Origin: Hyaloraphidium curvatum SAG 235-1
Lineage: Eukaryota; Fungi; Monoblepharomycota
Length of the DNA stretch: 64,000 nucleotides
Assembly: GCA_025558095.1 (NCBI GenBank)
Contig: JAIVFI010000026.1
Location: forward strand, 372,001 to 436,000
Direction of reading: 5' to 3'
Shown: piece by piece, positions 638-46,393 of the stretch
Layout: each line of letters starts with the position of its first letter
Position numbering within the stretch: the first letter of the stretch is position 1
Notes under the pieces: generated by a model
Database searches by the model: none
Told to the model about the DNA's origin: nothing
Seen by the model: the letters and a program-made list of their open reading frames with translations, nothing else
Made by a program: the position numbers and the translations under genes

Positions 638-738
638 TCCGCGCGAAGAAGACGAATGTTGCGCGCATAGTAAAATTTGGTGCATAGTTTTTGGGATGAG
701 TCGCGCATAGTATTGGGATGATGTGCGCACAGTTTTTG
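638..738 (+). repeat. Left (sub)terminal inverted repeat, GCGCATAGT array
   Basis: GGTGCATAGTTTTTGGGATGAGTCGCGCATAGT...GCGCACAGTTTT versus the right-end reverse complement GGCGCATAGTTTTAGGATGAGGCGCGCATAGT...GCGCACAGTTTT. Confidence 0.75.
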
Positions 739-964
739 CGTTGCGCTTTTTCACCTTCCAGATCGGTCCTCCTTACCTCTCTGTGGGAAAAGGCCAAGAT
801 TAACGCACTCAGACGCGACCAGAATGATCAAATCTAGCTAGGTAGGTGCCGCACTGGGTGTGTTGTTCATTGAAACGCAGTACGCGTCTCGCTGATCGGA
901 AGGCCTTCGACGACTTCGCGCAAGAGGTCAATTCCGTCCCCATTCACGGGATATCGGACAGTTG

Positions 965-1492
965 TTAGGCACGGTTGACACGTCTCGCAAGGAAAGCTGA
1001 GCCCATAGTTCCACTATGAAGCAAGTCATTCCCATCTCCCATCTCACACGAGCGAATCGGCAAACAAACCTTCTTGCATCGAACGCATTTCCAATCAGAG
1101 CCTTTGCCTTCGGTGGTGCTTTCGAGGTGCTCTCTCATGTCCGAACAGAAGTCCATGTCGCCAAACGCTTCGGCCGCGCCCGTCGGGCGATTGTCACTTT
1201 CGAGCCTGTTCCACTCCCCAACCGCCGTGGTGAACTGCATCATCCGAAACGTGTTGACGGTGTGTGCTGACAATTTGACGCCCTTCCACTTCGCAAGCTG
1301 CTCTTCCAAGAAGTCGCCCATGTACCCGCTCCTTGGTTTGACAAGTCTATCACCACACTTCGCGCTGGTTGCCGAGTAGTGGTCCGCCTTTCCACACCGA
1401 TGACATTTCGCGTCCATGGCTACCCGCGTTTCGGGCGAATTGGATGTGGAACTTGCCAACTCTGAGATGGCAGTCGGGCACATTCTGCTCAA
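965..1492 (-). CDS. Small Zn-knuckle protein
   Basis: CHRCGKADHYSATSAKC and CVRC motifs; start uncertain. Confidence 0.4.
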   Translation of the reverse strand: MSRMCPTAISELASSTSNSPETRVAMDAKCHRCGKADHYSATSAKCGDRLVKPRSGYMGDFLEEQLAKWKGVKLSAHTVNTFRMMQFTTAVGEWNRLESDNRPTGAAEAFGDMDFCSDMREHLESTTEGKGSDWKCVRCKKVCLPIRSCEMGDGNDLLHSGTMGSAFLARRVNRA

Positions 1493-1568
1493 AACCGCTG
1501 GCAGTGGCCTGCGTCACCCTTCCATACAACAAGAAACCGCCCAACTTCGTTGAACCTCTGCATTCGCA

Positions 1569-2114
1569 TCACGAAACAGAGATCTCCGCTAGACTAATCT
1601 TGCGAATCGGCGCCACCTGCGGCTGCAATTGCCAATGCCGCTCACCGCCGCTCTCCCGCGGCCGCCGACGCCTCTGCCGCCTGCTGCCGCCTTGCGCCAG
1701 TGCGCCCGGGCGCTGACCGACGCATCTGAAGTTGCCGATGTCTCCGGGCCCAGATCGACGCCTCTGCATCGAATGCAAGCGCTCCTCTGCGATCCGGACA
1801 CTGCCGGACGTCACCGCCAGACCTTGGTGCACTCCAATGAGGTAAATGAAAAACGGATGGAGGGGAAGTAATGGAGCAACAAGCACCAAGATGAAGGATA
1901 TCCCGAGCAGGGACCATCCAATGAAGGTGTTTGGCCCCAGGTGCCCGTGTTTGCTTGTATCGCTGAAAGGCAACGCAAAGAAGAACATCAGGAACACCAT
2001 GGGTGCTGCGACAATGAAGCTCACGATTGCTAGTACGACGTACACCGGGATGTTGACCCGCGTCGGGGGCACAACTGTGGCCGACATTGATGAATCCCTC
2101 GTCTGCAAAAGCAC
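1569..2114 (-). CDS. Hypothetical membrane protein
   Basis: Two long hydrophobic segments (IPVYVVLAIVSFIVAAPMVFLMFFFAL; FIGWSLLGISFILVLVAPLLPL). Confidence 0.5.
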   Translation of the reverse strand: MLLQTRDSSMSATVVPPTRVNIPVYVVLAIVSFIVAAPMVFLMFFFALPFSDTSKHGHLGPNTFIGWSLLGISFILVLVAPLLPLHPFFIYLIGVHQGLAVTSGSVRIAEERLHSMQRRRSGPGDIGNFRCVGQRPGALAQGGSRRQRRRRPRESGGERHWQLQPQVAPIRKISLAEISVS

Positions 2115-2135: not shown

Positions 2136-3419
2136 TCACTCGGCACCCCGCCAGCGACGTCCGTGCCAGAGCACACCGGGTCTGGAACTCCCCCTCCCCG
2201 TCAGCTCAAACAACAGGGCGTTGATCTCCCCGAGCAGAAAGTAAGACCGCCACTGCAATCGGGCCGGTGCATCACGTGGTTCATTCCAGTCATCGTAGAT
2301 TGCGTGGAAATCAATCTCATCCTGGAAGGAGTCGGCCAACTGCCGTAGCCCTTCGATGAAAGCAAAGTCCGAATCTCGCCACCGCAGTGCCGAAACCAAG
2401 CCTTGCACCATTGCTGGATGCATCCACGGCCGCAAGGCCTGGTCCAGCCTCTCTGGTACCAGCAAGCGCAGATTGACCCCCGTGTCCATGAGTTCAACCC
2501 AATCCACGGCGTCAAAGTCTTGAAAGTGCGACTTTTCGGCCGCAATACGCTCGGCAGCTGCGGCGAGACACTCCAGTGCAGAGGCGTTCCGCCACGGATT
2601 AAGGCCCGCTGCCAGCTCCAACCAGCGTCCACCGGCCTCCAGTGCCTTGCGCACGCGCCGTGCGACACGCCGTGAACCGGCGATCTCGGCAGCGTAGAAC
2701 TGACAAAGCGTGAGCGCTTGTCGATAGCTCGCCTGCGAGAGATCGAAACACTGAATCGACGGTGGTGCGCACAGCTCAAGAACGCTCAATAGCGAAATAT
2801 CCTCTTCGTCGCCGTTGTCCTCCCAGAGACGCAGAGACCGATGGTTGAACGGGCGTCCGACAAGGCGATATGAAGACAGGAAGTCCAATGACAGGTCAGC
2901 CCCGCTCCTCTGCGCCTCAGACGCTGCTTCGAAGAGCTGCGGATCACCAATACCGTAGATGCGGAGGATGTCATTTGTTGCGACGCACTTGACGTTGCCG
3001 CCAATGACGTCCGTGATGAGATGTCCCCAATTGTTGCACCGAAACCGAGTGTCAGAGCTCATCGCATCACTTCTCATCCCGGCACTGGCAATGTCGAGAA
3101 GACAGTTGTCCGCCATGTGTCGGCGAACGTCGTCAGATGAGCAGATGAGAACGGCCATTTCGCGGTTCTCCGGATCCCGGATCCATGACGCGTCGTCCAA
3201 TGAATGAAACAGCAGCGGGGTCTCCGTCATGAGCCAGTACAGCCTTTCGGCGGCGACCCGGGGGCCGTATCGCGCGATAAAGGCCGCCGCGCGGGTGTGC
3301 GAGTCAAACGCTGCGCGGGTCGCTCGACACGTGACGGACAGCCGATACGCCGCTCCCGCCGGGAGATAGGCGGCGATGCGGATCAAAAGCTCAACGGGAA
3401 ATCGTGGAAGGGCGGCCAT
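2136..3419 (-). CDS. F-box-like protein
   Basis: N-terminal LPRFPVELLIRIAAYLP...LSVTCR F-box pattern from the ATG at 3419. Confidence 0.65.
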   Translation of the reverse strand: MAALPRFPVELLIRIAAYLPAGAAYRLSVTCRATRAAFDSHTRAAAFIARYGPRVAAERLYWLMTETPLLFHSLDDASWIRDPENREMAVLICSSDDVRRHMADNCLLDIASAGMRSDAMSSDTRFRCNNWGHLITDVIGGNVKCVATNDILRIYGIGDPQLFEAASEAQRSGADLSLDFLSSYRLVGRPFNHRSLRLWEDNGDEEDISLLSVLELCAPPSIQCFDLSQASYRQALTLCQFYAAEIAGSRRVARRVRKALEAGGRWLELAAGLNPWRNASALECLAAAAERIAAEKSHFQDFDAVDWVELMDTGVNLRLLVPERLDQALRPWMHPAMVQGLVSALRWRDSDFAFIEGLRQLADSFQDEIDFHAIYDDWNEPRDAPARLQWRSYFLLGEINALLFELTGRGSSRPGVLWHGRRWRGAE

Positions 3420-3765: not shown

Positions 3766-5247
3766 ATGACGGAAGCGATTCGTGGAGCAGACATCGATGT
3801 GGACGAGGTCCAGGAGTTTCCGATTAGGCTGGTAAAGCGCCCGTCGCAGCGTGACCGCAAGAACCAGAAGAGCATTCGCTCGAAAGCGAGAGCTTGGGAA
3901 AGGGTCGATGAATTGATTGCAGCCGGAAAGAAGCGCTTTCCCGGTTTTGCGTCCCTGGACGGGCGCTTCCTGGAGTGGTTGAAAGCAAATCCGAAGGCGA
4001 ACGGTTCTGTCCACAGTCCCGTAACGCTTCTGCAGTATCACACCGTATCCGGAATCATTGGTCGTTTGATCGTAGGAAAGAAGCGCGGCATCGCTTACGC
4101 AGAGACCTTCCTTCAACTCCCAGTGGACGATCCTTCCGTGCAAAACTTCCGGGTTTGGTTGAACTACTACACACCCGAACGCATCTGGAGGCTTGTCCAG
4201 AAACACACATCCAATTTCGCTTCCCAGAGCGCATTCGCAGTGGCTCTCCTGAAGATGTTTACCTTTCATCGTGGATCCTCCGACCACGCAGACGTGATGT
4301 TCTTCACTGACAAAATCAAGGAGCTAGGGAAGATGACAGCTGTTGCAAAGCGATTGCAGCTGCCGCAGTTGGGCGCGGGGGACCTTCAAGTCGAATTTCG
4401 CACAATTCGAGACAAGGTACGGAGCTACGCGGAAAACATCCTCACGCGTTTTGAAGCAGCACCACCTGACGTGATTCAGAGAGGACTATCCGAAATACAG
4501 GCAGCTGCCATCACATCGCTTTACGTCCTGCACCCGCCTTCGCGTGCAGACTACGCATACCTTCGATTCACTCCCTCGAAAACCCACAACTACTTTGATG
4601 GTGGGGAGAACAGTCTTGTGTTTGTTAATTTCAAAACGGCCGCTACGTACGGTGTTGTTCGCGTCAAGATTGAGAATCCGATCGTGAGTCGACTTTTGCA
4701 CTTGCTCGCTGACAAGATCCGATCGCAGAATGGGGATCGCTACGTGTTCATGTCGCGACCCGGTAAGGCTTTTTCGACTGAGGCCGGGTTTGGACAACAC
4801 GTCGGCTACTGTTTCCGGCGTGTAACCGGCACGGCGCTTCGTCCTACCGCACTCCGGCGTCTCTATTTGAGCGATCACGCGAACGGCACCGTTGATCAGA
4901 ACGGGGAACACCGAGTGCCTTCCATGGAGGAAAACACGTCGCTTGCACGCAACATGATGCACAGCGTGGGCATGCAGGCATCCTACCGTCGGATGCCAAC
5001 GCTAGATCACATTCGGTCTACGATTCCTACCAACGACCCTGCGGTGCCCCGTGACGTTGCTTCGGCTGCAATCGAAGCTGTTGGTCGGATGCAGGCCGTG
5101 CAAGCTGACGGGTCAAGGGAGCAGCGCCTGGCGTGGGAAAAGGCCAAGCGCGACCTGGTGCGAAAAGCGGTGGAGATCGACGAGGCGCGTGAAGCAGCCG
5201 CTAAACGGCATCGTGAGAGACTCCACCAGAGGCGGTTGTCACAGTAG
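3766..5247 (+). CDS. Tyrosine recombinase/integrase (PLV/virophage/NCLDV-type)
   Basis: HPPSRADY (R), NFKTAATYG (K), RPTALRRLYLS (second R; H of HxLR absent), LARNMMHS...QASY (H, Y nucleophile). Intronless. Confidence 0.85.
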   Translation: MTEAIRGADIDVDEVQEFPIRLVKRPSQRDRKNQKSIRSKARAWERVDELIAAGKKRFPGFASLDGRFLEWLKANPKANGSVHSPVTLLQYHTVSGIIGRLIVGKKRGIAYAETFLQLPVDDPSVQNFRVWLNYYTPERIWRLVQKHTSNFASQSAFAVALLKMFTFHRGSSDHADVMFFTDKIKELGKMTAVAKRLQLPQLGAGDLQVEFRTIRDKVRSYAENILTRFEAAPPDVIQRGLSEIQAAAITSLYVLHPPSRADYAYLRFTPSKTHNYFDGGENSLVFVNFKTAATYGVVRVKIENPIVSRLLHLLADKIRSQNGDRYVFMSRPGKAFSTEAGFGQHVGYCFRRVTGTALRPTALRRLYLSDHANGTVDQNGEHRVPSMEENTSLARNMMHSVGMQASYRRMPTLDHIRSTIPTNDPAVPRDVASAAIEAVGRMQAVQADGSREQRLAWEKAKRDLVRKAVEIDEAREAAAKRHRERLHQRRLSQ

Positions 5248-5763
5248 TCGCTCCGCCGAATAGATCTCCGTGAGTTCAGGATCTTCCATCATGTCGCGGG
5301 CAACCAGTCTTAGCACGGTGAGAAGCCCGCGCCGCCAACTCAGTGTCCATTTGTTGGCTGGCGACGTGAGAATGTGCAAGACGGTTTCGTGATCCTTGAT
5401 CCAATCAAATGTGCGAGGAATCTCCGTCCACTGCAATGTGGAAGCCACCCGCATCAGTCGCTTCCACGTCTTGCGGTCGGCAAGGTCCCCAGTGACGTCG
5501 CGCGACGCACGGTGGAGCCGACAGAGCAGCATCAACCTCCGACGGTAAGTCAGTTCCGTTGAGTTCGACCAGACAAACTCTTTCGCTCCCGCCGCGGCAA
5601 GCAAAGTGATCGGATGGCTTGCAATCGCCGCCTTGTCATCAGCCGTTTGTGCGGGACGGCCGAATCGTGTCGCTTGCGGTTCGACGGCTGCCATGGATTG
5701 TGCTGCGATCTTGACGTCCATCGGAGGATGTATTTCTGGCCCCGTAGACGGCATCGGGGCCAT
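5239..5763 (-). CDS. Small helical protein, paralog 1 of 4 (recombinase core-binding-like)
   Basis: WSNSTELTYRRRL...EIPRTFDWIKD...WRRGLLTVLRL, pattern shared with 6193-6630 and 6678-7160. Confidence 0.7.
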   Translation of the reverse strand: MAPMPSTGPEIHPPMDVKIAAQSMAAVEPQATRFGRPAQTADDKAAIASHPITLLAAAGAKEFVWSNSTELTYRRRLMLLCRLHRASRDVTGDLADRKTWKRLMRVASTLQWTEIPRTFDWIKDHETVLHILTSPANKWTLSWRRGLLTVLRLVARDMMEDPELTEIYSAERLL

Positions 5764-6220
5764 GGGTTACACCAAAGACGATGCGCTATCGCGTGCCATC
5801 GCTAAGGCAGCAGAACAGGCCGGTTGGAGCCCTTCGTCGACCGATCTCAATCGAAAGGCCATTCTCCGTGTTGCAGCGCTCTACACCGCAACTCGCACCC
5901 TGAGACAGGAAGGCAAGCGGGACCCAGATTGGATTCTCATCGATCGCAAGGCCCGCCGGCTACGCGGCCCGTTCTCGACGTCGGTGCTCAGAAAACCTCG
6001 CTTCTTCAAATGGCTGTCGAAGCGAGCACCGTGGACCGCTCCACGTATCAGAAACGTAAGATGGGCGTTGATGGCAGCCGCCTACGCCGCCTTTGGCGTG
6101 GGTGCAGACGAGGTGTTTTCCCGGCGGGTGGCGGCGATCCGAAGGATTGAAAAGGTGGTCTTGACGAGTGGGAGGCGCGGGTTGACGATGGTTCAACAGG
6201 GGGAAGAAGAGGAGGTCTGA
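5762..6220 (+). CDS. Small helical protein, paralog 2 of 4
   Basis: MGYTKDDALSRAIAKAAEQAGWSPSSTDLNRKAILRVAALY matches IAKSIGKAAKAAQWTKAS...LRRIAALF and ALDRAARELRWSAAT...ILRLAKLY. Confidence 0.65.
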   Translation: MGYTKDDALSRAIAKAAEQAGWSPSSTDLNRKAILRVAALYTATRTLRQEGKRDPDWILIDRKARRLRGPFSTSVLRKPRFFKWLSKRAPWTAPRIRNVRWALMAAAYAAFGVGADEVFSRRVAAIRRIEKVVLTSGRRGLTMVQQGEEEEV

Positions 6221-6630
6221 GGCGTTGACTGGCGCCTTTGGCGGTACGCTGATTCGTTGTACTGCAGGGCCAGATGCGGATCGTCCAAAAAGACATCAGA
6301 AATGAGGCGAAGAACCTGGAAGAGGTTGGCTCTCCACCGGATTCTGTGCGGATCGTCGTCAGCACTCAGAATGTGGTCCAGAACATGCACGTCACGGATC
6401 CATCGGAAGCTGGCCGGGAGCTCATTCGCGGGGATCATGCGGGCAAGGGCGTCGATGTCGTCAAACATCGGAGTTGATGCGTTGCGTTGTCGGAGTGCCT
6501 GGAAGGCCGCGTACAGCTTGGCGAGACGGAGGATATGGTTCTTTGTGTTGCGGTGCGTGGCCGCACTCCAGCGCAGCTCACGGGCTGCACGATCAAGCGC
6601 AGTGTTGTAGAAGTGCGTCGCCGCAGTCAT
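6193..6630 (-). CDS. Small helical protein, paralog 3 of 4
   Basis: RAARELRWSAATH...ELPASFRWIRD...WRANLFQVLRL...DPHLALQY. Confidence 0.7.
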   Translation of the reverse strand: MTAATHFYNTALDRAARELRWSAATHRNTKNHILRLAKLYAAFQALRQRNASTPMFDDIDALARMIPANELPASFRWIRDVHVLDHILSADDDPHRIRWRANLFQVLRLISDVFLDDPHLALQYNESAYRQRRQSTPQTSSSSPC

Positions 6631-6677
6631 CGATGAGGGTTGAACGGCAAAAACGTCTTCCTACATCTGCCGATTCG

Positions 6678-7160
6678 TCAACCGAGGGCGTCCGGTTGGT
6701 CTGCGTAGTCACCAATTGCAATCTGCGAAGTCTTTGCCGGAAGTGCCTGCTCTTGCTTGAGGTTCCGGGCGCTGTACTTGGATGCGAGGATCCGGTCGCC
6801 GAGGAAGAGTTCCGCAGCCATCTTCAGGGCAGAGATCGACCCGCGTTTGTACGACGGCGATCCCCCAAGCCGAGCCACGATGCCTTGAACGACTCTCCGA
6901 TCCCTCAGCCACGCAAAACTCTTTGGCAATTCGCTTCTGGGCAGCCTTCGTGAGATGTCGTCAATCAACTCCCACGATTCGTCGTCAAGTTTGTCGGGTT
7001 CAACACTGTCCAAGCGATTCCGCAGCTTGCGAAGAGCGCAGAACAGGGCTGCGATTCTCCTCAGCCTGTGCGAATAGGAGTCGGCCGACGCTTTGGTCCA
7101 TTGCGCCGCTTTGGCGGCTTTGCCAATGCTCTTGGCGATGAGATCCGGTTCCTTCGGCAT
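6678..7160 (-). CDS. Small helical protein, paralog 4 of 4
   Basis: KAAKAAQWTKASADSY...ELPKSFAWLRD...YKRGSISALKM...DRILASKY. Confidence 0.7.
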   Translation of the reverse strand: MPKEPDLIAKSIGKAAKAAQWTKASADSYSHRLRRIAALFCALRKLRNRLDSVEPDKLDDESWELIDDISRRLPRSELPKSFAWLRDRRVVQGIVARLGGSPSYKRGSISALKMAAELFLGDRILASKYSARNLKQEQALPAKTSQIAIGDYADQPDALG

Positions 7161-7199: not shown

Positions 7200-7931
7200 T
7201 CAACCCCACCAAAACTTCCAGAGGCATCCTCGCTTGCGGCGGACGACATGCATTGACTCGTCGGTCGGTTCCGAATCCAGCGCCTCTAGCCGTTGTAGCT
7301 GCCGATCGATGTCTGCAAGCATTCGCGTCGTCTCCCTGTCCAAATCCTCGGCCAGTCGCATCTTGCGTCTTGCCGCATCCTCCAGCACGCGTGCGCGTTC
7401 TATGCGGAGCTCTTCGACTTCGGCGGCGGGGTTTGCGAACTCCGATGGGGGCTCAATGTTGAAGCACGATCGGAACGACGCCAGCACCGCCTCGTCGATT
7501 GGAGTCGGGGAGATCAAGCGGGTTGCCGTTCTGCGATTGTCGTCGACCACGCGTCGGTAGATGCAGATGGGCTGGAATTCGCGGAACAGTGCTGCCATGC
7601 GTCTGGCGAGATCTTCCGTGTCGTTGGGTGCTGCGCCGAGGAACTGTGCCAGCTTGGTCCGTTTCACCCCCTCCCGCGGGTACGGCGCGGCGGAAGACAG
7701 CAGCCCATGGAGCTTTGCCCAGCCCAACAAGACTCTCTCTGCCTCCAGAGCCTGTGCGCGATCGACAAAGGCTGCTCTGACAATGTGCTTCATCTGACGT
7801 TGAGCGTAATCCCGGGTCGGATCGGTGGAATACCCCACCTTGGCGAGGTTTGGGTTCGTTGCGTGCACTGCCAAATACACGTAGCAGAGGCTGTCGATCC
7901 GGAAACAGGCGCCCGCGGGGATGTCGGACAT
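7200..7931 (-). CDS. GIY-YIG/T5orf172-like protein with C-terminal coiled coil
   Basis: YVYLAVHATNPNLAKVGYSTDP...ALEAERVLL pattern. Confidence 0.65.
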   Translation of the reverse strand: MSDIPAGACFRIDSLCYVYLAVHATNPNLAKVGYSTDPTRDYAQRQMKHIVRAAFVDRAQALEAERVLLGWAKLHGLLSSAAPYPREGVKRTKLAQFLGAAPNDTEDLARRMAALFREFQPICIYRRVVDDNRRTATRLISPTPIDEAVLASFRSCFNIEPPSEFANPAAEVEELRIERARVLEDAARRKMRLAEDLDRETTRMLADIDRQLQRLEALDSEPTDESMHVVRRKRGCLWKFWWG

Positions 7932-8051: not shown

Positions 8052-8834
8052 ATGCTGCAGCTTCCGGAGCTTGACACGGCAGGGATCGCGGCGATTGCCA
8101 AAGAGATCCCGTACGGCGTGTGGTTCATCTGCGGCAAACGCGGATCGGGCAAATCGGTCCTCGCCAAGTGGATCATGAGCGCAGTTGCCGAGCGCTTCGG
8201 GCTCTTTGTTGCCGTTTCGTCCACGGAGGGGTTCAATCGCCACTATTCGAGCTTTCTGCCCAAGGCCTTCTGCCATCACGCATACAGCCCCGAAGCGCTT
8301 GCACGGATCGTCGATGCCCAGAGCCGCCGCGTGAAAGAGTTGGGCGTCTCCAAGGAAACCAGCCTTCTTCTAGTGCTTGACGACGTGTTGCATGACGGTC
8401 AAGAGCTCTTCAAAGACAAGAATCTGAAGCACATCTTCATGAACGGCCGACACATTGGAATCTGTCTTCTCCTGCTTGTGCAATACATTGTCGCCGTGCC
8501 GTTGGCTCTCCGCAGCAACGTCGACATCACAATCAGCTTCGCAGACGACACATACGACGTAAGACAGCGTCTTTGGAAACTGGCCGGTGGAAGTCTGAAG
8601 TACCCTCAATTCTGCGAGTTCTTCAACCGCGCTACGGAAGGTAGAAGGGCGCTCGTCATTGTCGCGCGTGCAACAAAACAGGGAAAGATGTTTTGGGTGC
8701 TTGCCAAAGACGCCCCAAGTCTGCGCCTTGGCAGTGACTTGATGTGGTCCTTTCAGCGCCGCTGGGGCATTGACCGTCTGCCCAGGGCGGAGCAGGCTCT
8801 GTACCGCTCCAGATTCGTCGCAGTGAGCAAGTAG
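8052..8834 (+). CDS. A32-like virion DNA packaging ATPase (FtsK-HerA family)
   Basis: Walker A GKRGSGKS, Walker B LLLVLDD, arginine finger MNGRH, and LLVQY; 260 aa. Confidence 0.9.
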   Translation: MLQLPELDTAGIAAIAKEIPYGVWFICGKRGSGKSVLAKWIMSAVAERFGLFVAVSSTEGFNRHYSSFLPKAFCHHAYSPEALARIVDAQSRRVKELGVSKETSLLLVLDDVLHDGQELFKDKNLKHIFMNGRHIGICLLLLVQYIVAVPLALRSNVDITISFADDTYDVRQRLWKLAGGSLKYPQFCEFFNRATEGRRALVIVARATKQGKMFWVLAKDAPSLRLGSDLMWSFQRRWGIDRLPRAEQALYRSRFVAVSK

Positions 8835-8945: not shown

Positions 8946-9836
8946 ATGACGACGTCCCTTGCAGAGCAGGCCGCGCTTTCCGCGGCTTTGTTTAGCCGGC
9001 GCGACGAGGAAATCGTCGCGCTGGAGCTCTCTGCGATCCGCACGGCGGTCTCCTTCATGTCGCGATTCGGCCACTCGCACACCCTGCACCAGATCGCGAC
9101 ATTCACGCCCGGTCATTCGACGTACAGCATCCACAGCGTGACTCAAAAGGTCCTTGACGCTCTCAACGCCGAGGGATTCGCCGCCGTGCCCCTACCATCC
9201 CACAGGCCCGGCGCCATCGTCGTCGCCTGGGGCGACGCCGGCGATCGTCTGTCAGCGGCTCAAATGGCCATGCGGCGCGCGGAAAGGCGAGCGGAACGGC
9301 ATGCAAAGGCACGGGCAGACGCAGGCAAGGCGCTGAGGGCCGAGTCGCCGCAGCTGGCCGAGTCGCGGCGAGAGACGGCAAATGGGAAGCGACGGGAGGG
9401 GTCGCGAAGCTCAGGTCGGAAGCGAAAGCGGGACCGGGCGGACTGCGGGAGAAGCGACAGCGAGGCGACAGCCGTTGCGTCGACGGTCGGCAGCAGGAGC
9501 AGCTTGGCGTCGGCGGCTACAGCGGCCACAGTAGCAGCAGGGGCGGTAGCTCCGGCGGTGCCGACGGTGGCGCCGGCAGCGGTCGGTGTCCGCCGGCGTC
9601 TCTACGTGCCCGGAGAGAGCGTTGCTGAGAGCGCCAGCAGCCGCGCTCCGCAGCGGACCGCCGCCCCCGCCCGGGATCCCGTCGCGACGCTGATTACGCG
9701 GCCGTCAGCCGTCGTTCCGCGGCAGCGGGAGGAGCCGAGGATCCTTCTTCCGACCCCGACGCCCCAGGAGCTGGCGTTGTTTTCCTTTTGCGACCATGCA
9801 CAGGTCACACTCCCGCCCGGAATTCCGACCACCTAG
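8946..9836 (+). CDS. Protein resembling a conserved NCLDV family of unknown function, with low-complexity tail
   Basis: HQIATFTPGHSTYSIHSVTQKVLDALNAEGFAAV...AIVVAW fits the remembered pattern VP.F..G.P.Y...L...GF.V...L.ISW (possibly DUF5759, from memory). Confidence 0.55.
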   Translation: MTTSLAEQAALSAALFSRRDEEIVALELSAIRTAVSFMSRFGHSHTLHQIATFTPGHSTYSIHSVTQKVLDALNAEGFAAVPLPSHRPGAIVVAWGDAGDRLSAAQMAMRRAERRAERHAKARADAGKALRAESPQLAESRRETANGKRREGSRSSGRKRKRDRADCGRSDSEATAVASTVGSRSSLASAATAATVAAGAVAPAVPTVAPAAVGVRRRLYVPGESVAESASSRAPQRTAAPARDPVATLITRPSAVVPRQREEPRILLPTPTPQELALFSFCDHAQVTLPPGIPTT

Positions 9837-9841
9837 TGCGA

Positions 9842-36838: not shown

Positions 36839-36929
36839 TCTGAATTCATGCTTCGAATTCGTGTGTTTGGAAGCAGTTTGCAATCGAAAACTCTCTGCAG
36901 TCGCCGTCCCCGCTCCGCTCCTCGGCCAG

Positions 36930-37535
36930 TCACCCGACAGTGACCTGGGTCACGCGCCCTGCTCCGTCCACCCACGCCGTAGCGCGGTCATCACGACTCT
37001 CCATCGTCATCGGCTGCCCGTCAGCAATGCGGACCCACATCCCCAGCTCGGCAAACTTTGCCTTCACTTCGTCAACATGCAGTTTTCGCCTCTCGACGTC
37101 GCTTGCGAGGAGCGTCGCTTGCGCGTGCCGGCGCTGGAGGAACTCCGCGGACGGACCCGGCGGTAACGGAGGCGAGTCCCCGAGGTCCATGGGAGCCCCG
37201 ACCGCCACCAAGTTTGGGTCGTCTTCGTCGGTGGGGAACGGACCTTCAAAGTTTGGTGGCGCCCAGCGAGCCGGAACCCCCGGGGTCAAGCTCCATTCAG
37301 CAGTCCCGAAAACAAAGGAGGTCGGGAGTACGGGATCTCCGATGGGCGCCTGCCGGGACACAGAAGCCGAGAAGGCGGAATTTGCCGTCATCTGGTACAG
37401 AGGGGGAGTCGCCGGACGAGGTCGCTCCTCTGTCTTAGCGTTGTGGCGCGGGGCAAACACCACAACCAGCACGATCATCGCCGCGACCAGGAGCGCGCCC
37501 CCGACGATGACGAAGAGCGGAATCCGGCTTGCCAT
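36930..37535 (-). CDS. Membrane-anchored protein with C-terminal peptidase inhibitor I78-like domain
   Basis: N-terminal TM helix; C-terminal VRIADGQPMTMESRDDRATAWVDGAGRVTQVTVG. Confidence 0.65.
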   Translation of the reverse strand: MASRIPLFVIVGGALLVAAMIVLVVVFAPRHNAKTEERPRPATPPLYQMTANSAFSASVSRQAPIGDPVLPTSFVFGTAEWSLTPGVPARWAPPNFEGPFPTDEDDPNLVAVGAPMDLGDSPPLPPGPSAEFLQRRHAQATLLASDVERRKLHVDEVKAKFAELGMWVRIADGQPMTMESRDDRATAWVDGAGRVTQVTVG

Positions 37536-38075
37536 CGTGGGTGCGTGCGAGCGTTGCAAGAAAACAACGCCCATCCGACGAGCATCACGACCCCGGCCAC
37601 TCCGACTCCGTCGGCACCCCGGCCCACCGGTGACGACCCCGGTCTCCGGAAGCGGCGCCTTGCTCCCTGTCCCCACTTTCGCGGCGTCCTGCGTGGACCC
37701 CGCCTTTCGCGCCTGCAGCGCCCCCGGCGCCTCCGCCGCCTGTCGCGCTCAACCCCGGGCCCGCCACACACGCCAAACTGGGACGACGGCCTTGCACGCG
37801 GGCTCACGGTCGCGCGGAGAGGTTGCATGTGTCTCAAGCGCCCGACACCGCAGCGGCGCGGCGCTGGGCGACTGGTGGCGGCCAGGACGCTGTCGGGGAG
37901 GTCACCGGAAGTGCGGGGGCGGCGGGGGTTTGCGGAGCAGGGAGTGCTGGGGTCGCACGGAGGTGACGCCTCCCGTGGGTGCACGCCGCGCGGCGATCGG
38001 CGCCCGCCGCCAGGGTGCGCCGCCGCGGGCCTCTACCGATGAGTTGACCAAACATTTTCGCGTGCCCCTCCCAGC

Positions 38076-39290
38076 ATGACGGCTCCGCTCCAGCTGCTAC
38101 CAAGAGAAATCGTCGCGGCGATCGCCGCCAGATCCGTTGACAGCTGCCTCGAATGCATGCGAACCCAGGTGGAGGACCCGCCGTCCCGCGGACGGGACGG
38201 ACCGGCAAAGATCAAGCAAGTTTGCGCTGAAATGACCAATCAGCGAAAGGTGAGCACGCTTTTCAAGGACACGATCGACAAACGCTGGAAGACACTAATG
38301 GCACTCCGCGATCTGGAAGGCACGTTTGTGTCCATTCTGCAAGATGAACGTCTCTTCCAGGACGCAATCCATTCGTGGTTTTTCTGGAATCTGTGGTTGC
38401 AAGTGCACCCGCAGCGCCCTGTCTTTTCGATCGGCAGGCTTTTTGCACGCCTCAGACACGCCCCGATCGCCCAGGTGGAAGCCGTGCTCACGGACCTCGT
38501 CACCCATGACGTGCGTGCGTTCCTACCCCGGAAGCCGGATCCCACCGTCGGGCCGCTGGTCGCTCGCCTTCTGTCGGATCCTCCGGCGCCCGACGTCCTG
38601 CGCCGCTTTCTCGGCTGGCTCTCGGACGCCCCTGTATTGCGCGGCCAAGTCCCCTTCACCAACCCCTCGGCCGTGCGCACCGCCGCCGACATCGTAGCCA
38701 TTTTGGAGTACCGCATCTTTGCCCCCAAGCAAGTGCTTGCCGCGGCCATGCGTGTGCCCACGCAGCTGGAGACGGGCACGCTGTCCCAGCTCTACAACGC
38801 CTTCTCCGGCGGCATTGATCTGCGGGGACTGCACCTGCCTGCCGAACACCTGATCGATCTTCTCGTCAACAGCCCGGGCTTTGTGCGCGACTTTCGTGGC
38901 AGCGCGCAGCTGCTCACGTGGTTGATCCTGGAGTTTGTCTTTGCCGACAATGGCGGCGAACATGAGACGGTGGCCGAGCTGCTGGAGGCGTTTCCGACGA
39001 CGGATTACCTGGACGCCGCACGAGTTCGCCCCGAAAAGGCCGCGGAGACCGTCCTGAGTGCCGTGTGGACCGCTGTTGACGAGCAGGAATTCTACGACTG
39101 GACGGCGCTTGAACGCCTTCCGCTGCTACGACGGCTGGCGGACGCCCTGCCGCCGACGCTCCTCGTCCCGGACGGATTGCTCTGGAAGCCGGGAAGACCG
39201 GACGTTTCCAGCGTCCTCACGCGCGTGTTTTTCGGCAACGCTTCAAAGCAGGTCCGATTGCAGAAGAAGTGGGCTGAAAGGGACCTCTGA
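38076..39290 (+). CDS. F-box-like helical protein, paralog A
   Basis: LQLLPREIVAAIA; colinear full-length similarity to 40142-41356. Confidence 0.75.
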   Translation: MTAPLQLLPREIVAAIAARSVDSCLECMRTQVEDPPSRGRDGPAKIKQVCAEMTNQRKVSTLFKDTIDKRWKTLMALRDLEGTFVSILQDERLFQDAIHSWFFWNLWLQVHPQRPVFSIGRLFARLRHAPIAQVEAVLTDLVTHDVRAFLPRKPDPTVGPLVARLLSDPPAPDVLRRFLGWLSDAPVLRGQVPFTNPSAVRTAADIVAILEYRIFAPKQVLAAAMRVPTQLETGTLSQLYNAFSGGIDLRGLHLPAEHLIDLLVNSPGFVRDFRGSAQLLTWLILEFVFADNGGEHETVAELLEAFPTTDYLDAARVRPEKAAETVLSAVWTAVDEQEFYDWTALERLPLLRRLADALPPTLLVPDGLLWKPGRPDVSSVLTRVFFGNASKQVRLQKKWAERDL

Positions 39291-39502
39291 TGCTCCCGAG
39301 GGTCTTAAGGCAAGGAGGCCAAACGCAAGCGTTTCCCTGAATGAGTGAGGACGCTGTCGGGGAGGTCACCGGGAGTGCGCGGTCGGCCGTGGGGGCTGCG
39401 AAGCAGGGGCACGCTGGGGTGGCACTGGGGTGACGCCTCCTGTGGTGCGCCGCGCGACTGGTGCTCCGTCAGCCGCCAAAGTGAGCGCACGGATCCGTGC
39501 AT

Positions 39503-40012
39503 TCAACGCTCACGTGTACACTTCTTTGCATGTGTCGCGCAGAAACGGCCCCCAGGGCGCGCGGCCTTGCTGCACCAACGGTGAGCGGTAGTCGCCCAGC
39601 ATGCGCATTTTGGCTGCGAAGGCGGACGGCGCACGGGCACCGGCGAGGGCGGGCGGCGCACGGGCGAGGGAGAACGGCGCACGGGCGAGGGAGAACGGTG
39701 CACCGGCGAGGGAGAACGGACCAGGCGGGCAGGGCCGCTTGCCCGTGCCTTGATCACCTTGCCCTCGCCCGCCAGCACCTGCGCGGCATCCATGTCGGCG
39801 CGGATGCCAACAAACGTGGGAAAGCGCGGGACGCCCTTTTCGCTGAGCTCCTGGTAGCGGAACGTCACGACGGTCTCGCCTTTCTTGAGTCGGTGGCCGT
39901 TGATGAGCGCCATAGGCACCTTGAGCCCCACCGTCGTGCCGTTGGCCAGCTGCAGAGTCACGGCTTGCTTCCCGAACTTGGTGCCGACGTACACTCCTTC
40001 CGCGTTCCGCAT
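39503..40012 (-). CDS. DNA-ligase OB-fold fragment + RSPSPV repeats + Cys/His motif
   Basis: GETVVTFRYQELSEKGVPRFPTFVGIRAD (ATP-dependent ligase C-terminus), four RSPSPV-type units, CACWATTAHRWCSKAARPGGRFCATH. No adenylation domain. Confidence 0.7.
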   Translation of the reverse strand: MRNAEGVYVGTKFGKQAVTLQLANGTTVGLKVPMALINGHRLKKGETVVTFRYQELSEKGVPRFPTFVGIRADMDAAQVLAGEGKVIKARASGPARLVRSPSPVHRSPSPVRRSPSPVRRPPSPVPVRRPPSQPKCACWATTAHRWCSKAARPGGRFCATHAKKCTRER

Positions 40013-40141
40013 CAGCACAATCCACGCCGGGGGCGGGGTCTTAAAGCGAGGAGGCCAAACGCAACCGTTTTCTGCATGAGTGAGCCCAGTGCAATGGCGG
40101 ATGTGTGGGTCGCATTTTCGCACACTATCGCCAGCACTGTC

Positions 40142-41356
40142 ATGCCTCCATCAATTCGCCTTCCAACCGAACTTGTTGAGACAATTGCCTCGGAATCGGT
40201 CAATGATTGTTTCACATGCATGAAAACACATGCCGGCCCCCGCGGCCGCAGAGCCGGAGCGGCCGTCATCAAACGCGCGTGTGCGGACATGGCGAATCAA
40301 CGCAAAGTGAATTCGCTGTTCAAGGACGCCATCGATCGACGATGGAAACAGCTGATGCGGAATCGTGACACGGAGGGCACGTTTCTGAAGATCTTGCACA
40401 ATGAACACCTCTGGGAAAACGCAATCAATTCGTTCTACTACATGGCCGATCTCTGGCAGCAAGTTCATCCACAGAGAAGCATCATGGACGTTGGTCATCT
40501 GTTTGCGCAGCTCACGACAGCGCCGCTCCCCCAAGCGATCGACGTGCTGAAGGGCGTCGTGACACATGATGTTCGAGCGTTTTTGCCCAGCACAAATCTC
40601 CCCGAGGTCCAGCCGCTCGTCGACCGTTTGCTGTCGGAGCCCGAACTGCCATCGGACGTCTTGCGGGCTTTCCTCGGTTGGTTGAGCGACGCCCCTGCTC
40701 TCCACGATCGAATTCTCTTCACGAATATTGCGGCATTGCGCACGGCGGACGACGTCAAGTCGATCTTGGAATACAGGCTCTTCAAGCGGGAGCAGATCTT
40801 ATCTGAAATCGCAGAAGTGACCGAACACTTCGAAACAGGCGCCCTTTCGACGCTCTACAACGAACTCCCCGAATTTGAGCTCTGGGGAGCCAACTTGTCT
40901 GCGCGCCATCTCCTTGACCTCCTAGAAAACAGTCCGCGTTTTGTGCAAGACTTCCTGACGAGCTACCAACTCAAGGAATGGTTCATCACTGGCTTTCTCC
41001 AGAGCTTCAATGGTGGTGACTTGGCCGCTGAGCTTGTCAACGTGTTCCCGACGGACCGCTGGCTCGCCGCCCAAGGCACAAATCCCGAGGAGGCCGCTCG
41101 CTCGCTGCTCTATGCCATTTGGTGTGTCGTGCGCGACCACCCCGAGATCACCCACTGGTCACCTCTCGAACGGATTCCACTGATCCACGACGTTGCAGCC
41201 CTGCTCCCACCGACGTTCATGATTGATGACGATCTTCTTTGGAGGCCGGACGCCAACCAGGTTGTTTCCAGGATCCTGATGCGCGTGTTCCACAAAAATG
41301 CATCTGAGCATGTACGGCAGTTGGAAGATGCCTTTGCAAGCGGCCAGGTGCTCTGA
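40142..41356 (+). CDS. F-box-like helical protein, paralog B
   Basis: IRLPTELVETIA; shares NQRKV..LFKD.ID.RWK, VTHDVRAFLP and FLGWLSDAP with paralog A. Confidence 0.75.
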   Translation: MPPSIRLPTELVETIASESVNDCFTCMKTHAGPRGRRAGAAVIKRACADMANQRKVNSLFKDAIDRRWKQLMRNRDTEGTFLKILHNEHLWENAINSFYYMADLWQQVHPQRSIMDVGHLFAQLTTAPLPQAIDVLKGVVTHDVRAFLPSTNLPEVQPLVDRLLSEPELPSDVLRAFLGWLSDAPALHDRILFTNIAALRTADDVKSILEYRLFKREQILSEIAEVTEHFETGALSTLYNELPEFELWGANLSARHLLDLLENSPRFVQDFLTSYQLKEWFITGFLQSFNGGDLAAELVNVFPTDRWLAAQGTNPEEAARSLLYAIWCVVRDHPEITHWSPLERIPLIHDVAALLPPTFMIDDDLLWRPDANQVVSRILMRVFHKNASEHVRQLEDAFASGQVL

Positions 41357-42417
41357 CGAGTCGCTTGCGACGCATCCGCCGTCCGGCGAAGCGCTCCGGG
41401 GCCCGGTGTTGAGCCACGTCACGGATCGCAGGCACGGGTGGCGCGCCGATCGGCAGTCGGTGCTTCTCCACAGGTTTTCTTCGCAAATAGAAACCACATG
41501 GAGCGCTTTCTGGTAGAGGGCATCGCTCTTGGTGTTTTCCGGATCCATCCAGCGCTTTCCGGTGATGTCGTGCTGATTGAGGACGGCTGCGCCGGGCGAG
41601 TCGTGGCCCGGGCGCACCCTGCAGGCTACGTGACTGCGCCGTGGGGGCGATTGCGCCTCAGCAAGCTGGGGCAGCGCCTTGCGCGCCGTCTAGGAGTTCC
41701 CGGAAGGAGGTCCGCCAAGCACATTTTGGACGACGGCCGTTGGCTTACGCCGTACGCCGGCCGTTGACCGCGGGGTGCGCAAGCTCGCTCACCGGCGCCC
41801 CCTGATCCATTCACGGGACGCGGCCAAGTTGGAGAGGGCAATACAAGCAATGCGGGCAGCCTTGAACAGGACATAGTCGTGTATCGGGGCTAGTTGGTAC
41901 ATTCCCCCGTCTAGAGATCCGCATTCAAGGTCCTGGCGTCGCACATGGAGGCAAGCATCGCAACTATCGTCTACCAGCGACGTAGATGCTGTTTTGTGCC
42001 ACCTGCTTCGCAATCACATGTCCGGTTCGCACTGCGTTGGCGCGACCCGACCGGGGGTACCCGGTCCCGACCGGGGGTACGACCGGGGGCCCGGTCCGGG
42101 GTGTAGCCATATAAACGCAAGCGCCAGACCATCTCGCAACACGACCCTTCTCTTCCGACGCCTAGTAGCGGGCCGCTTGGGTATCTGACGCGTCTCAATC
42201 GAAGTTGTTTGTGGGTCCAGCGGCGCGCGCGGCGCAGCGCTGAGCACTCAGTATCTGACAATTCCCGGCACCGCACCTCCGCGTCTGCCCGTGCCACCGC
42301 ATCAAATCGCAGAGCTCCAAGCAAACGGCGGGCGCCTTGTGACACCCTCCGCCGCTTGGCGGCGACGAGCGACCCCGTCCCGACCGGCACCCTCTCGGCC
42401 CGACTCCTGCCGACGCA

Positions 42418-45400
42418 ATGACCTCAAACGCCGTCCTCACCCGGACTCTCCCCTTCGGCCGCCCATCGGCGAGCCGTTCATCAACCCCCGGTGGCGCCGC
42501 GAAAGGTCGGCGCGTACAGAGCGCTGTCGCTCCAAGCACAGACGGGAGCGATGGGTCAAGACGGGACCGCCGTTCGTGGCAGTCTGAAGAGCCAGATGAA
42601 GAACCCAAGACGTTTCTCCAGGCCGCACGGGAGTCGTGGGCGTCGTCCAAGCCGCGTGCAACGGTGACAGTGCGCGCCGGTGGGAGGAGCGACGAGTCTG
42701 GCGACGAAGAGAGCAACATCCCCAAGCCCTTCGACACCCGCCTGACCCGCGTCTCCCTCCGCGGGCTGCCGCAGTATCTACACGATCTCGACCAAGACTT
42801 CCGCCCTGTTCGCGGCGTCCAGCTCATGTCCGCAAAAGTGCACCAGTTCCTTGTCACATCAGACGGCGGGCCCGCAGGGAAGTTGGATCCACGCGCCGTC
42901 ATCCTCAACGTGGAGCAGAACCCGGCAGCGACTCGCAAGAGCGTGGAGCGGGCGATCCGGAAGCAACGCCCCGTCTACCGCTACATCATGGAATGTGTCG
43001 GGACATCGGCCTGTCCGGCACCCGGCGTCAAGTGTCCTATGCTCCTGGGGTGAGCCCGAGCGTGCCAAGTGCTCAATCTCTACTGACACGGACCCGAAAG
43101 CGTCTTCATCTTTGCGCACGACATCCAGCACGCTGTTGTGTTTACAAGGAACTTCCACGACCCGCCCAATGAAGAACGCCGCCGAACCGCTTCAATGCTC
43201 CGTACCCTGGCGTTCGACTACTTCTTGCGGTCTGGATCGACGCCCGCACAGTTCATCCTGGACGAAGGAGGCAACTTGAGCAAACTGGGCGGCATTCCGG
43301 AAGGCACGCTCAAGAGCATTGCGCGACAGGCGCGGAAGGCCAAGTTCGGTCCCGTGAGCCTCAACGTCCTTCGCAAACTGGCCAGGGATCGGCCCACGAA
43401 CGTCCAACTTCTCGGCCTCGCCGATGATGGCGAGGATATTGGGTGCGACTTTTCGTACGCCTTCACCGACACAGTTGGACTTGTCTTTGCCATTCTGTAC
43501 TCCATTGTCGTCGGCATTGACACCAGTTGGCGGCGCAAGAACGCCCAGGGGTTCCCTTTGACCGGACTCGTCGCGTTCGATCTCTTTGGGCGCCGTGCAA
43601 GGCCTCTCGCCTTCCTCTTCTCCACCAACATCAAGCGGCCTACGCTCAAACGCTTCCTCAAGTGGTTTGTCGCCCGGGTGCAGTCCTTCTGCCGGGACCT
43701 CCTTGCCTCCCCGGACGAGAGCGGATGGCCAGCCGAATTGCGGGGCTACCGGGAACTGGTCCAGCGGACGGCGACTACGGGGTGGAGGCCGAGGTGCATG
43801 ACGCTGGACAAATCGTACGCCGAGCTGGGGGCTCTCCAGGACGTTTTCGGCATCGGACTTGGAACGGTTTACCGTCTATGTTACTACCACATCAAGGAAG
43901 CCTTCATGCGCCGTGCTGGGAAGAGCAAGGATGGAAAGCGGGGGAGGAGGGATGGCGAGGCCGGAGAGGAAGACGCGATCCCCGATTCAGTGATTCCCAG
44001 AGGGGTCAGGACTGCGAGCTTTTTCGCTTTCAGGGACCTTTGCGCGAAAGCTCACAACGATGAGCAGTGGGAAAACGGCAAGAAGGAGCTACTGGAGAAG
44101 ACGATCCCCGATCTCCTCGAACGAAACGCAACCGACCATACCGCCGAGATGTGTCGGCAGATATCGCAGTGCCAGACGGCGTACGTCCAAAAGGACTGGC
44201 TCAACGACACCTGGACGCCTCTGGTGGCCGACTACCTGCTCCCGAGCGATCTCGACGTGGGCGACTGTTTCACGAACAACCACACCGAGGTCATCTGGAA
44301 GGTCATCGACAACGTCATCCTCTGCGGGAACTTCCATATTGCGACTGCCATCGTGAAGCTGGACCGTATCTGGCTCTACAGCAAGCTTACGGACGATCGC
44401 GGACACATGCACCCCAAGGTCGCCGAGGCTCTTGAACTGGGGACGGAGCTCTGGGTGAAGGGACACGTCAGGCTGTCGGAGGGCGAGATCTATGGGGTCC
44501 GTTGCGGTGATGGCAGCCGCGCCAGAGTCGACCTGTCGGCGCCGCGTCGATGGTGTGACGTCCCCGCGTGTCGCGTGGGCTCCAACCCGCATCGGTGCAA
44601 GCACTGGTTCGCCGCCGATCTCATGCGCCACAACGGCACCTTTGCCGAGTGGGAGGAGGAGAGCCGCAGAGATTTCGATTTCGAACTCTCTATCGTGCAG
44701 ATCGATGAAGAGGTTGCGGGGGTGGAGGTGGAGCAGCAGGACGAACCGATGGATCTGCAAGAGCCGCAGGCCGGCATTGGGGAGGAGCAAATGGAACCGG
44801 AGGCACCGGAGGCACCGGAGCAATGGAGAGACAACCCCAGCCTGGGCGATCATGACTTGGACGGTGCAGATGGCGTCGACGACCAGGCCTCCATCGATCT
44901 CCCGCCGCCCATCGATTTTGGCAACCGATCAACCTCGCCTCCGCCACCAAAGGCAGCACTACCGACGCCGTCACCTGCACCGGAAGAGGACGTCGACGAT
45001 GACGATGGCAATCTGACAGTGCAATCGAACACATCGCGCCAGCCCCGGGGTAGACCCCCGAAGAAAGCACCCCCGCTTCGGCCAAACCGGCGCAATTATG
45101 GGATTGTGGACTCTTCGGACGACGACGCCCCCCTTGGCGAAGAGCGTCCTCCGGCAAGGAGAACGGTCAAAATCACTCACCTTCCAGGAACGCAGAGGGC
45201 CAAACAACTGGGTGTTGAGAAGTCTAGGACAAAGCAGGCGACAACTACATCGAATTCGAATTCCAAGAAGAGGAAACGGGAGTTAGCCCAACAACCCGCA
45301 CGACCACCGCCGACGCCTCCCACGCTCCTCGCTTCGCCCGTCAAGCACAAGCGCACCGCCTACAGTGCGGAACCGTCTCTGACCTCATCAACCAACCAAT

Positions 45401-46218
45401 GGGCCGACGCCTTTGCTGTACTGCTACCTGCGCTGTACCGGGTACTACGGCGTTCGGAGAAGCGGGGTGTGATCCCTCCCCGCCTACTCTCCATCGTCGA
45501 ACGCGACGCGGGCACGAAGAGTTCCTTCGACGACTACGCGGACCACGGCTACGTTTTCCCCCCGGAGCACGATCTGAACTTTGTGCGGGATTGGGTCGCT
45601 ACCGAGACCTTGCGCAAGATCGGGGCCAGTGCGAGCACTGGGGGTGCCGTGGAGCTGATACTGGAGTTCCTCGGCAGCAGTTTCTCCGCAGGGGCCAAGT
45701 GCGAATGCGAGCCATCGACACCATCCAGGCTGACGTTCAGAGACCTCCCGATGATCAGGATAACAACCACGGGGTTTGCGGCGACGGGGAGTGCGGCTGC
45801 GAAGGAGCAACTGTGGCAGTCTGCGCTCCACACAGCCTGGCAAGGTCTTGCATCTCGGCGAGGCAGCTGCCGCGGCAACTGTGGGAGCGCCACCTTCCAT
45901 CTCACGGGAGACGTCATGCCCCCCCTTCAGGTCTTTTCCCTGGAACCCGGTGACTACCAGATTGACCTCCCTGCTGACATCACCATCGGTAAGAGCAACT
46001 TCCACTGGATTGGGACAATCTATGGTGGGGGCAAGCGTTTGTCGACACGGTGGGAGGGATCGGACGGTTTGGTCTGGCAATGGAGCAACGGACGCATCTT
46101 TCCGTTCAGTGCTCCAGATACAAACGACACGGTGGCATGGGAGGAATTGAGCGCGGGGGAACGCTTTGGGTTGAAGGGCGGAGCCAAGGCAGAACTTGTA
46201 TTCTACGCTCTTGCTTGA
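42418..46218 (+). CDS. Mutator-like (MULE) DDE transposase with SWIM finger; intron 43050-43100
   Basis: GIDTS (D), MTLDK (D), LCYYH (CxxH), TNNHTE (E), SWIM-like CDVPAC...CKHWFA. A 51-nt GTGAGC...CTGAC...AAG intron joins ORF 42418 in frame and restores a C..C...H motif. Confidence 0.85.
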
Positions 46219-46264
46219 ATGAATCATCTCATTTGGTAGTTTCGCGGCGCAGCGCCTGAAGAAG

Positions 46265-46393
46265 AACTATGCGTGGCTAGCCCAAAACTGTGCGCCAAGC
46301 AACCACAAACTATGCGCGCCTCATCCTAAAACTATGCGCCGAAAATCCCAACCAATTGAGACTATGCGCAAAACATCTTTTGCTATGCGCGGA
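46265..46393 (-). repeat. Right (sub)terminal inverted repeat, ACTATGCGC array
   Basis: About six ACTATGCG/ACTGTGCG copies; reverse complement of the 638-738 array. Confidence 0.75.

Follow-up and report, generated by a model that had tools for sequence, protein, structure and literature searches.

Several classes of described mobile DNA bear on the locus reported here. Teratorn, a fusion of a piggyBac transposon with a herpesvirus in teleosts, has a single pair of terminal inverted repeats (TIRs) around viral genes and a DDE transposase, spans 41-182 kb, and keeps a polymerase, a capsid and a terminase in multiple TIR-bounded copies (PMC6431247). The Polinton-like viruses (PLVs) and small viruses resembling nucleocytoplasmic large DNA viruses (NCLDVs) that encode a tyrosine recombinase (YR), namely, the Mriyaviruses, VC134 and Zoraviruses, possess an A32 ATPase and a primase-superfamily 3 (SF3) helicase replacing the family B DNA polymerase (PolB), together with an inverted repeat beside the primase-helicase gene and a T5orf172-like gene, on a scale of 20-45 kb (10.64898/2026.06.19.733378; PMC11296320). 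The Mycodnaviridae, integrated giant viruses of zoosporic fungi, reach ~350 kb and carry D5 and A32 among other NCLDV-type genes, along with the major capsid protein, PolB, VLTF3 and, in some cases, Polinton-type integrases (PMC13533422). Muta1-type Mutator-like elements (MULEs) and Pack-MULEs combine an intron-containing transposase with DDE and CxxH motifs, TIRs of more than 100 bp that consist of short repeats, and fragments of host genes (PMC5225508, PMC6446971). We analysed a 64,000-nucleotide stretch of the genome of the free-living, chytrid-like fungus Hyaloraphidium curvatum SAG 235-1 (contig JAIVFI010000026.1, positions 372,001 to 436,000; hereafter, the window) in which NCLDV-like genes and an intact MULE-type transposase lie between two inverted, TIR-like arrays. 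The reading that we favour, with about an even chance of being correct, is that a virus-derived element that integrates by YR and replicates by D5 was inserted inside a MULE, not carried by it.

Like Teratorn, this element has a DDE transposase and viral genes between a single TIR pair, and its size falls within the Teratorn range; it differs in that the transposase is of the MULE type, the genes are NCLDV-like, a YR is present as well, and neither a polymerase nor a capsid was detected, while movement of the whole unit is here only a possibility. As for recurrence, the viral arm is found at another locus, with no transposase record on that contig and with the ends unseen. The ATPase, YR, primase-SF3 helicase, inverted repeat, T5orf172-like gene and size scale are common to the element and the YR-encoding PLVs and small NCLDV-like viruses; unlike those viruses, it shows no detectable major or minor capsid protein, VLTF2/3 or HUH endonuclease, and it has an L1R/F9L-like protein, two large D5 genes and a position inside MULE ends. 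Of the Polinton-like morphogenetic module, the ATPase is present and no capsid was found in searches made without PLV-specific profiles. The pair of A32 ATPase and D5 primase-helicase typical of Nucleocytoviricota, and found here as in Mycodnaviridae in a fungus of a zoosporic lineage, is not accompanied by a detected double-jelly-roll major capsid, nor by PolB, VLTF3 or Polinton-type integrases, and because no capsid was detected we class the element neither with the Polinton-like or small NCLDV-like viruses nor with the Mycodnaviridae. The intron-containing transposase with the DDE and CxxH motifs, the long TIRs with subterminal tandem repeats and the host-gene fragments are those of Muta1-type MULEs and Pack-MULEs, from which the locus differs in the lack of a target-site duplication (TSD), in arms that are 80% alike, in its size (46 kb vs ~3 kb for Muta1) and in a full replication module. 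In Starships, the captain YR, a DUF3435 protein, is encoded by the first gene; the YR described here is encoded by the third open reading frame (ORF) and has neither a Pfam match, even with E allowed up to 1, nor an NCBIfam match.

Table 1. Features of the element and of its left border (window coordinates; a dot marks features given without a strand)
Feature	Coordinates	Strand	Remarks
Solo long terminal repeat (LTR)	404..627	+	outside the element, touching its left end; TG..CA ends; flanks GAGAA / TTTGG differ
Left TIR-like array	631..738	+	~21-bp units with GCGCA(T/C)AG; start probably ~628-631, beside the solo LTR
12-bp direct repeat	940..951	+	candidate left attachment core (weak lead)
Small predicted membrane protein	1569..2087	-	variant copies in sequencing contigs
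F-box-like protein	2136..3419	-	Pfam F-box E 7e-4
YR	3766..5247	+	493 aa, intact; Atlas 0.96
Four paralogous ORFs	5239..7160	.	145-175 aa; beside YR; 27-36% identity
T5orf172/GIY-YIG-like ORF	7200..7931	-	weak, Pfam E 0.18
A32-like packaging ATPase	8052..8834	+	260 aa; A32 E 3e-11 (Pfam)
Unassigned ORFs	8946..13442	.	including 10438-11301 and 9842-10429
Internal palindrome	13992..14249	.	9-bp triplet arms, AT-rich core, just downstream of D5a
D5a: Prim-Pol + D5_N + SF3 helicase	14547..19478	-	1643 aa, intact
Stand-alone Prim-Pol domain	20171..20764	-	paralogue of D5a N-terminus
L1R/F9L-like membrane protein	21057..21728	+	223 aa; MG start, C-terminal hydrophobic helix
Zn2Cys6 transcription-factor-like gene or fragments	22275..25200	-	host-type; Pfam Zn_clus E 2e-5; 27% to host factor, E 1e-4
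Protein-kinase fragment	25954..26184	+	Pfam Pkinase E 1e-15, 77 aa
Paralogue of 9842-10429 and second helical ORF	26559..28532	-	second ORF with F-box-like start (by eye)
D5b primase-helicase	29579..33712	+	1377 aa, intact; 35% identical to D5a over 675 aa
Cargo ORFs	35419..41356	.	including tandem paralogue pair 38076-39290 / 40142-41356, 50%
DNA-ligase OB fragment	39800..39883	-	Pfam
12-bp direct repeat, second copy	41807..41818	+	upstream of transposase
MULE-type transposase	42418..46218	+	1249 aa, intact; one GT-AG coding intron ~43049-43099
Right TIR-like array	46261..46404	-	six motif copies

An earlier, sequence-only reading of this DNA had proposed inverted terminal arrays at 638-738 and 46283-46393, and these are borne out with the slightly different borders given in Table 1: the GCGCATAG arrays form an inverted pair, in register, that encloses ~46 kb. 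The GCGCA(T/C)AG motif is clustered at 663, 680, 703 and 725 on the plus strand and at 46267, 46288, 46310, 46332, 46362 and 46383 on the minus strand, and the sole further cluster of at least three motifs at one mismatch in the window is a 39-bp tandem at 36165-36243. All four matches to the paired-motif pattern fall within the two arrays (0.00 expected from 100 shuffles), and the arms align over 61 nt with 80% identity (blastn E 3e-7) and a local score of 63, compared to at most 24 in 701 windows lying clear of the right array. TIRs made of short subterminal repeats are typical of Aedes MULEs (PMC5225508). Conceivably, the two arrays are separate insertions of one MULE family around an endogenous virus, brought about by local hopping or by LTR-mediated rearrangement, with the transposase copy having lost its own left end. 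The modest similarity of the arms, the solo LTR at 404-627 that lacks a TSD and so marks rearrangement, the presence of at least three recorded family members in the genome, and the position of the window within a repeat nest are all compatible with such a history; we nevertheless consider it improbable, given that units D and E of both arrays are in register, down to a common GCGCACAG variant, and that scans around 42 kb and around 1 kb revealed no remnant of an inner end. That both ends derive from one MULE family and that no array lies just upstream of the transposase, as the sequence-only reading held, agrees with the alignment of the arms and with motif, pattern and inverted-repeat scans of the window. 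Further CTATGCGC-like motifs occur as a weak inverted pair around D5b (28650-28685 / 35215-35290) and as a 39-bp triple tandem at 36148-36266; the pair was considered as nested TIRs and rejected, its score being 34 vs 63 for the outer pair.

The transposase ends 49 bp (stop codon to first motif) ahead of the right array. The D, D, CxxH and E residues and a SWIM-like Cx4C..CKH motif are common to this protein and a paralogue, encoded on another contig, that is 67% identical over the core, in accord with the earlier assignment to a spliced MULE DDE/SWIM transposase and with the DDE-plus-CxxH signature of the MULE superfamily; the Pfam MULE matches are weak, neither of them reaching the cut-off (E 0.0012 for the paralogue and 0.032 for the window protein), and two structure predictions, with pLDDT (the predicted local confidence) of 32 for the transposase and 47, were too poor for a structure search. 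The coding intron is skipped in contigs of sequencing run X1, and an additional intron lies upstream (42211-42312). Neither of the two runs compared is recorded as RNA; we treat the X1 contigs as RNA because they skip GT-AG introns. An 8867-nt X1 contig covers 37014-46183 with four introns, which demonstrates transcription of this region, although not that it yields one single transcript. A search for the transposase family among annotated proteins of 553-1763 aa yielded three proteins, on contigs of 615,044, 855,321 and 816,567 bp; the first of these contigs, assigned to H. curvatum in the protein records, as the claim of a fungal host implied, also carries the ATPase gene model of the window. 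In the protein from the 816,567-bp contig (P0003), the gene model joins a fragment of the family with a Zn2Cys6 factor that is weakly related to the one inside the element (27%, E 1e-4). In addition, a contig of run X2 matching 43102-43134 runs on into another, unannotated-looking paralogue of the transposase N-terminus.

The packaging ATPase, the L1-like protein, the two D5 primase-helicases and the YR are all present between the arrays, as had been claimed, the YR and the L1-like protein being identified by Atlas only. For the YR, Phage_integrase is found on 15% of the cluster members; for the L1-like protein (Atlas 0.93, 216 shared features, low recognition 1595), L1R_F9L is found on 11-13% of the members of the Nucleocytoviricota clusters matched. 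Both D5 proteins contain D5_N (E 9e-15 and 9e-8), and the first contains Prim-Pol (E 3e-9); in D5b, the archaeo-eukaryotic primase (AEP) domain is recognized from motifs by eye and was not confirmed with an NCLDV AEP profile of 13 sequences (E 9). The palindrome adjacent to D5a folds with a z-score of -3.73, and none of 200 shuffles was equally stable; it is a candidate origin or a candidate site of joined genome ends. In entomopoxvirus-associated PLVs, repeats beside the primase-helicase gene have been proposed to serve as the origin and the YR substrate (PMC11296320). The four ORFs beside the YR are short and helical, resemble recombinase core-binding domains by eye, and may steer the direction of recombination. 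A variant contig over the YR (4444-5874) has CT..AC-type joints and, accordingly, is spliced antisense to the YR, which hints at possible antisense control.

RNA contigs show joints within the D5a frame at 14519-14573, 17881-17941 and 19020-19094, two of which truncate the protein, from 1643 to 524 or 135 aa, whereas one swaps the last residues; these likely represent cryptic splicing of a viral gene. The viral frames are open, with RNA joints that mostly break them, whereas the transposase requires its intron, which points to two different origins of these genes, with a viral and a nuclear history, respectively. The frame-breaking joints, the failure to detect a capsid or a DNA polymerase, and the abundance of giant-virus remnants in zoosporic fungi (PMC13533422) could also suggest that the viral genes are a decaying, passively duplicated and immobile piece of a larger giant-virus insertion. 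The intact frames of 1643, 1377, 493, 260 and 223 aa, the lack of CpG decay and the pattern of changes in the YR described below make this the least probable of the explanations considered.

The viral arm is not unique in the genome. A copy of the ATPase that is 98% identical is encoded on a 551,499-bp contig, where it is annotated next to a partner of ORF 10438-11301, also 98% identical (consecutive accessions KAI9006337-KAI9006338); X1 RNA contigs show the 6-nt deletion of this partner at 11142. Contigs were compared with the window over 420-20400 and 30000-47340, and variant contigs differ from it by 0.4-5.6% at nine places listed between 1494 and 18729. Monoblepharidomycota include diploids (PMC9457484), and the 551,499-bp contig was therefore considered as an allelic haplotig; this was rejected, given that all three flanking host genes tested form single-member clusters. 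Among the 40 differences listed, of 375 in all, 20 of the 23 codon changes between the YR of the window and that of a variant RNA contig are synonymous (silent fraction expected, 0.25; P 5e-10), as are seven of the eight in the ORF neighbouring the YR and one of the four in ORF 1569-2087. Thus, the YR was kept by purifying selection while the copies diverged, which passive cargo would not need. The transposase family has no record on the 551,499-bp contig within the size range searched. Between 30 and 46 kb, the variants found are confined to short pieces (35468-35591, 38855-38957 and near 43792); because the contigs drop variants, we do not take this scarcity to mean that a second right half is lacking. 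The loose end of a contig at 1535 matches 628-1540 no better than shuffled sequences do. This end is a hint that the variant copy departs from the window leftward of ~1494, although one contig cannot fix the boundary.

Since the viral genes lie between the left TIR and the transposase, the virus must have entered the MULE first, so nesting is the first step in every model, and the models differ in what moved afterwards. Spread driven by the YR is favoured by the selection on this gene, by the absence of transposase records for the second locus, by the divergence of the arms of ~20%, which exceeds that between the viral copies, and by the missing TSD, so it is likely that the viral part spreads by means of its own recombinase and landed inside the transposon. 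The nested arrangement, which the sequence-only reading had offered as its alternative, is therefore the one to which the results on the TSD, the transposase records and the YR lend weight, at the even chance stated above, whereas mobilisation of the viral element by Mutator, its first choice, fares less well on the same evidence. In particular, no exact direct repeat of 7-11 bp is shared by 596-670 and 46366-46445, so that neither a duplication of the 8-11 bp usual for MULEs nor one of the 9-11 bp anticipated earlier flanks the arrays.

The principal competitor is movement of the entire 46-kb unit as a MULE-mobilised composite, that is, a fungal analogue of Teratorn, of which the second copy would be a non-autonomous or partial derivative. 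A single in-register TIR pair without an inner TIR encloses everything, RNA contigs cover the transposase, which is intact and spliced, the CpG-rich composition changes at the arrays, the internal palindrome is unbroken, deep paralogues join the left arm to the right half (D5a/D5b, 35%; 9842/26559, 30%), and host-gene fragments lie between the TIRs in the style of Pack-MULEs. Set against this are the absence of a TSD, the purifying selection that acted on the YR, the fact that no family transposase is on record for the second contig, and the reported size limit of Pack-MULEs, up to ~7 kb, with transposition dropping as cargo grows (PMC6431247); we regard movement of the whole unit as possible but rather unlikely. 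The version in which the Mutator transposase is the vehicle of a capsid-less NCLDV-like replicon, with integration at the MULE ends, D5-driven amplification from the internal origin, resolution of circles by the YR and capsids borrowed in trans, so that it would be a Mutator-based fungal counterpart of Teratorn, we consider doubtful.

Several observations, nevertheless, weigh against YR-driven insertion into the MULE. At the left end, the LTR has replaced the flank, a rearrangement that can account for the missing TSD, so the TSD test is not decisive, and unequal or truncated ends are known for MULEs with subterminal repeats (PMC5225508). The entire block 640-46400, including its MULE parts, has a CpG observed/expected ratio (O/E) of ~1.0-1.2, compared to ~0.5 in the repeat flanks, as fits arrival as one unit. 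The intact palindrome fits integration by means other than recombination at that site, and a need for dimer resolution, or an earlier phase as a free virus, could be what the selection on the YR reflects. In the YR comparison, the 551,499-bp contig is also assumed to be the source of the variant contig. Annotation of the second copy is incomplete: single-member clusters are formed by D5a and by the T5orf172-like protein although variant contigs cover both, so the missing transposase record is weak evidence, and the ends of the second viral arm are unseen. Finally, the 12-bp direct repeat at 940 and 41807, the candidate attachment core, has P ~0.04 between 740-1570 and 41356-42110, a region chosen after the match had been seen.

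If the insertion into a MULE by the YR is nonetheless accepted, the viral element would work in the manner of Polinton-like or small NCLDV-like replicons that encode a YR. The D5 primase-helicase would act at the palindrome (13992-14249) together with host polymerases, and the YR would integrate or resolve a circular form. The arrangement could then stem from a single integration into an autonomous MULE of ~4.9 kb, at a point separating its left TIR from its promoter and perhaps marked by the 12-bp repeat; excision at this repeat (952-41818) would remove 40.9 kb and leave an ordinary-sized MULE of 4.9 kb. The host fragments, the cargo and the second D5 gene would have accreted afterwards.

The description of the gene set as capsid-less stands within the searches made: Pfam scans of the window frames and a profile of 87 NCLDV capsid proteins found no capsid among 1164 frames (best E 6.4), whereas the same profile matched 125 frames in the fetched loci; no PLV-specific capsid profiles were applied, and very divergent capsids can escape profiles (PMC11296320). 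Pfam scans of the frames likewise revealed no PolB or VLTF3, and no HUH endonuclease or VLTF2/3 was among the Pfam matches, with no dedicated profile run for the latter. The nearest ATPases are ~30% identical to that of the window, and NCLDV capsid genes are present at five of the seven loci of these ATPases that were scanned. In an ATPase tree of 11 rows, a small number owing to the few loci that passed the motif filter, the window branch is 2.6 changes per column long and has no firm placement. No relatives were found among viral contigs with the ATPase, the D5 alignment, the L1-like protein and the YR as queries, or among metagenome contigs with the transposase and D5 alignments. The N-terminal 774 aa of D5b retrieved from 1.84 billion representatives only the two D5 proteins of the window, the D5a C-terminus retrieved only itself among the best 7991 candidates, none of the 23 other window proteins had a match in the 80 NCLDV loci that the ATPase had retrieved, and sequence searches of the PDB gave nothing significant. 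No close relative of the element emerged from the viral, metagenome and protein-representative collections. Of the 30 exact protein look-ups, 14 matched a record.

To judge from the literature within reach of our search, which excludes subscription papers and some supplements, there is no account of this element or of any MULE-virus fusion. Hyaloraphidium is absent from the readable supplement files on Mycodnaviridae, although others may mention it, and nothing specific to the element appears in the accessible text of 10.1101/2025.04.19.649669, whose tables may list the region, or of PMC12166617.

On a cautious reading, the virus-derived mobile DNA at this locus of a Monoblepharidomycete fungus appears to represent a lineage not described before, and it is multi-copy, transcribed and under selection. 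The retention of genes for packaging and entry in the absence of a detectable capsid suggests a satellite or helper-dependent life. The nested arrangement is, moreover, the first step needed for a Teratorn-type fusion, caught here with an intact transposase and both ends. Should whole-unit movement turn out to be true, the element would count as a virus-carrying transposon of a new type: transposon-virus fusions would extend to Mutator elements and fungi, and the natural cargo of MULEs would rise from a few kb to more than 40 kb.

The remaining content of the element is heterogeneous. Host-type pieces (the Zn2Cys6 gene, the kinase and the DNA-ligase OB fragment) lie between 22 and 42 kb together with paralogues of left-arm genes, such as that of ORF 9842-10429 at 26559-27242 (30%). 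Internal duplications at 33760-35169 and 37884-39456, of 231 bp (94%), 158 bp in tandem (99%) and 112 bp (82%), are recent and point to ongoing rearrangement of the cargo. Rfam gave no match in the window.

Outside the element, ordinary host genes begin at 49.6 kb (Rap-GAP, WD40, RING/TRAF and GFA in Pfam), and the flanks at 1-627 and 46.4-49.4 kb form a repeat nest with CpG O/E of 0.46 and 0.53, respectively, vs 1.06-1.16 in 740-46240, a level that resembles that of the host genes; the step in composition is located at the arrays. Many repeat contigs cover the LTR; past 627 they diverge from the window and share a single continuation, which we take to be a copia primer-binding site. The solo LTR belongs to a high-copy retrotransposon, lacks a TSD and is inserted in another repeat, and its unduplicated flanks indicate rearrangement at the left junction. 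One CpG-depleted repeat family occupies both 47348-49363 and 1-406. On the right side, it forms a tangle of copies, some direct (486 bp) and some inverted (200 bp), that are 99-100% identical; on the left, identity is 80-93%. A 40-bp tandem repeat, present five times at 46406-46604, follows directly after the right array and may belong either to the target or to the element.

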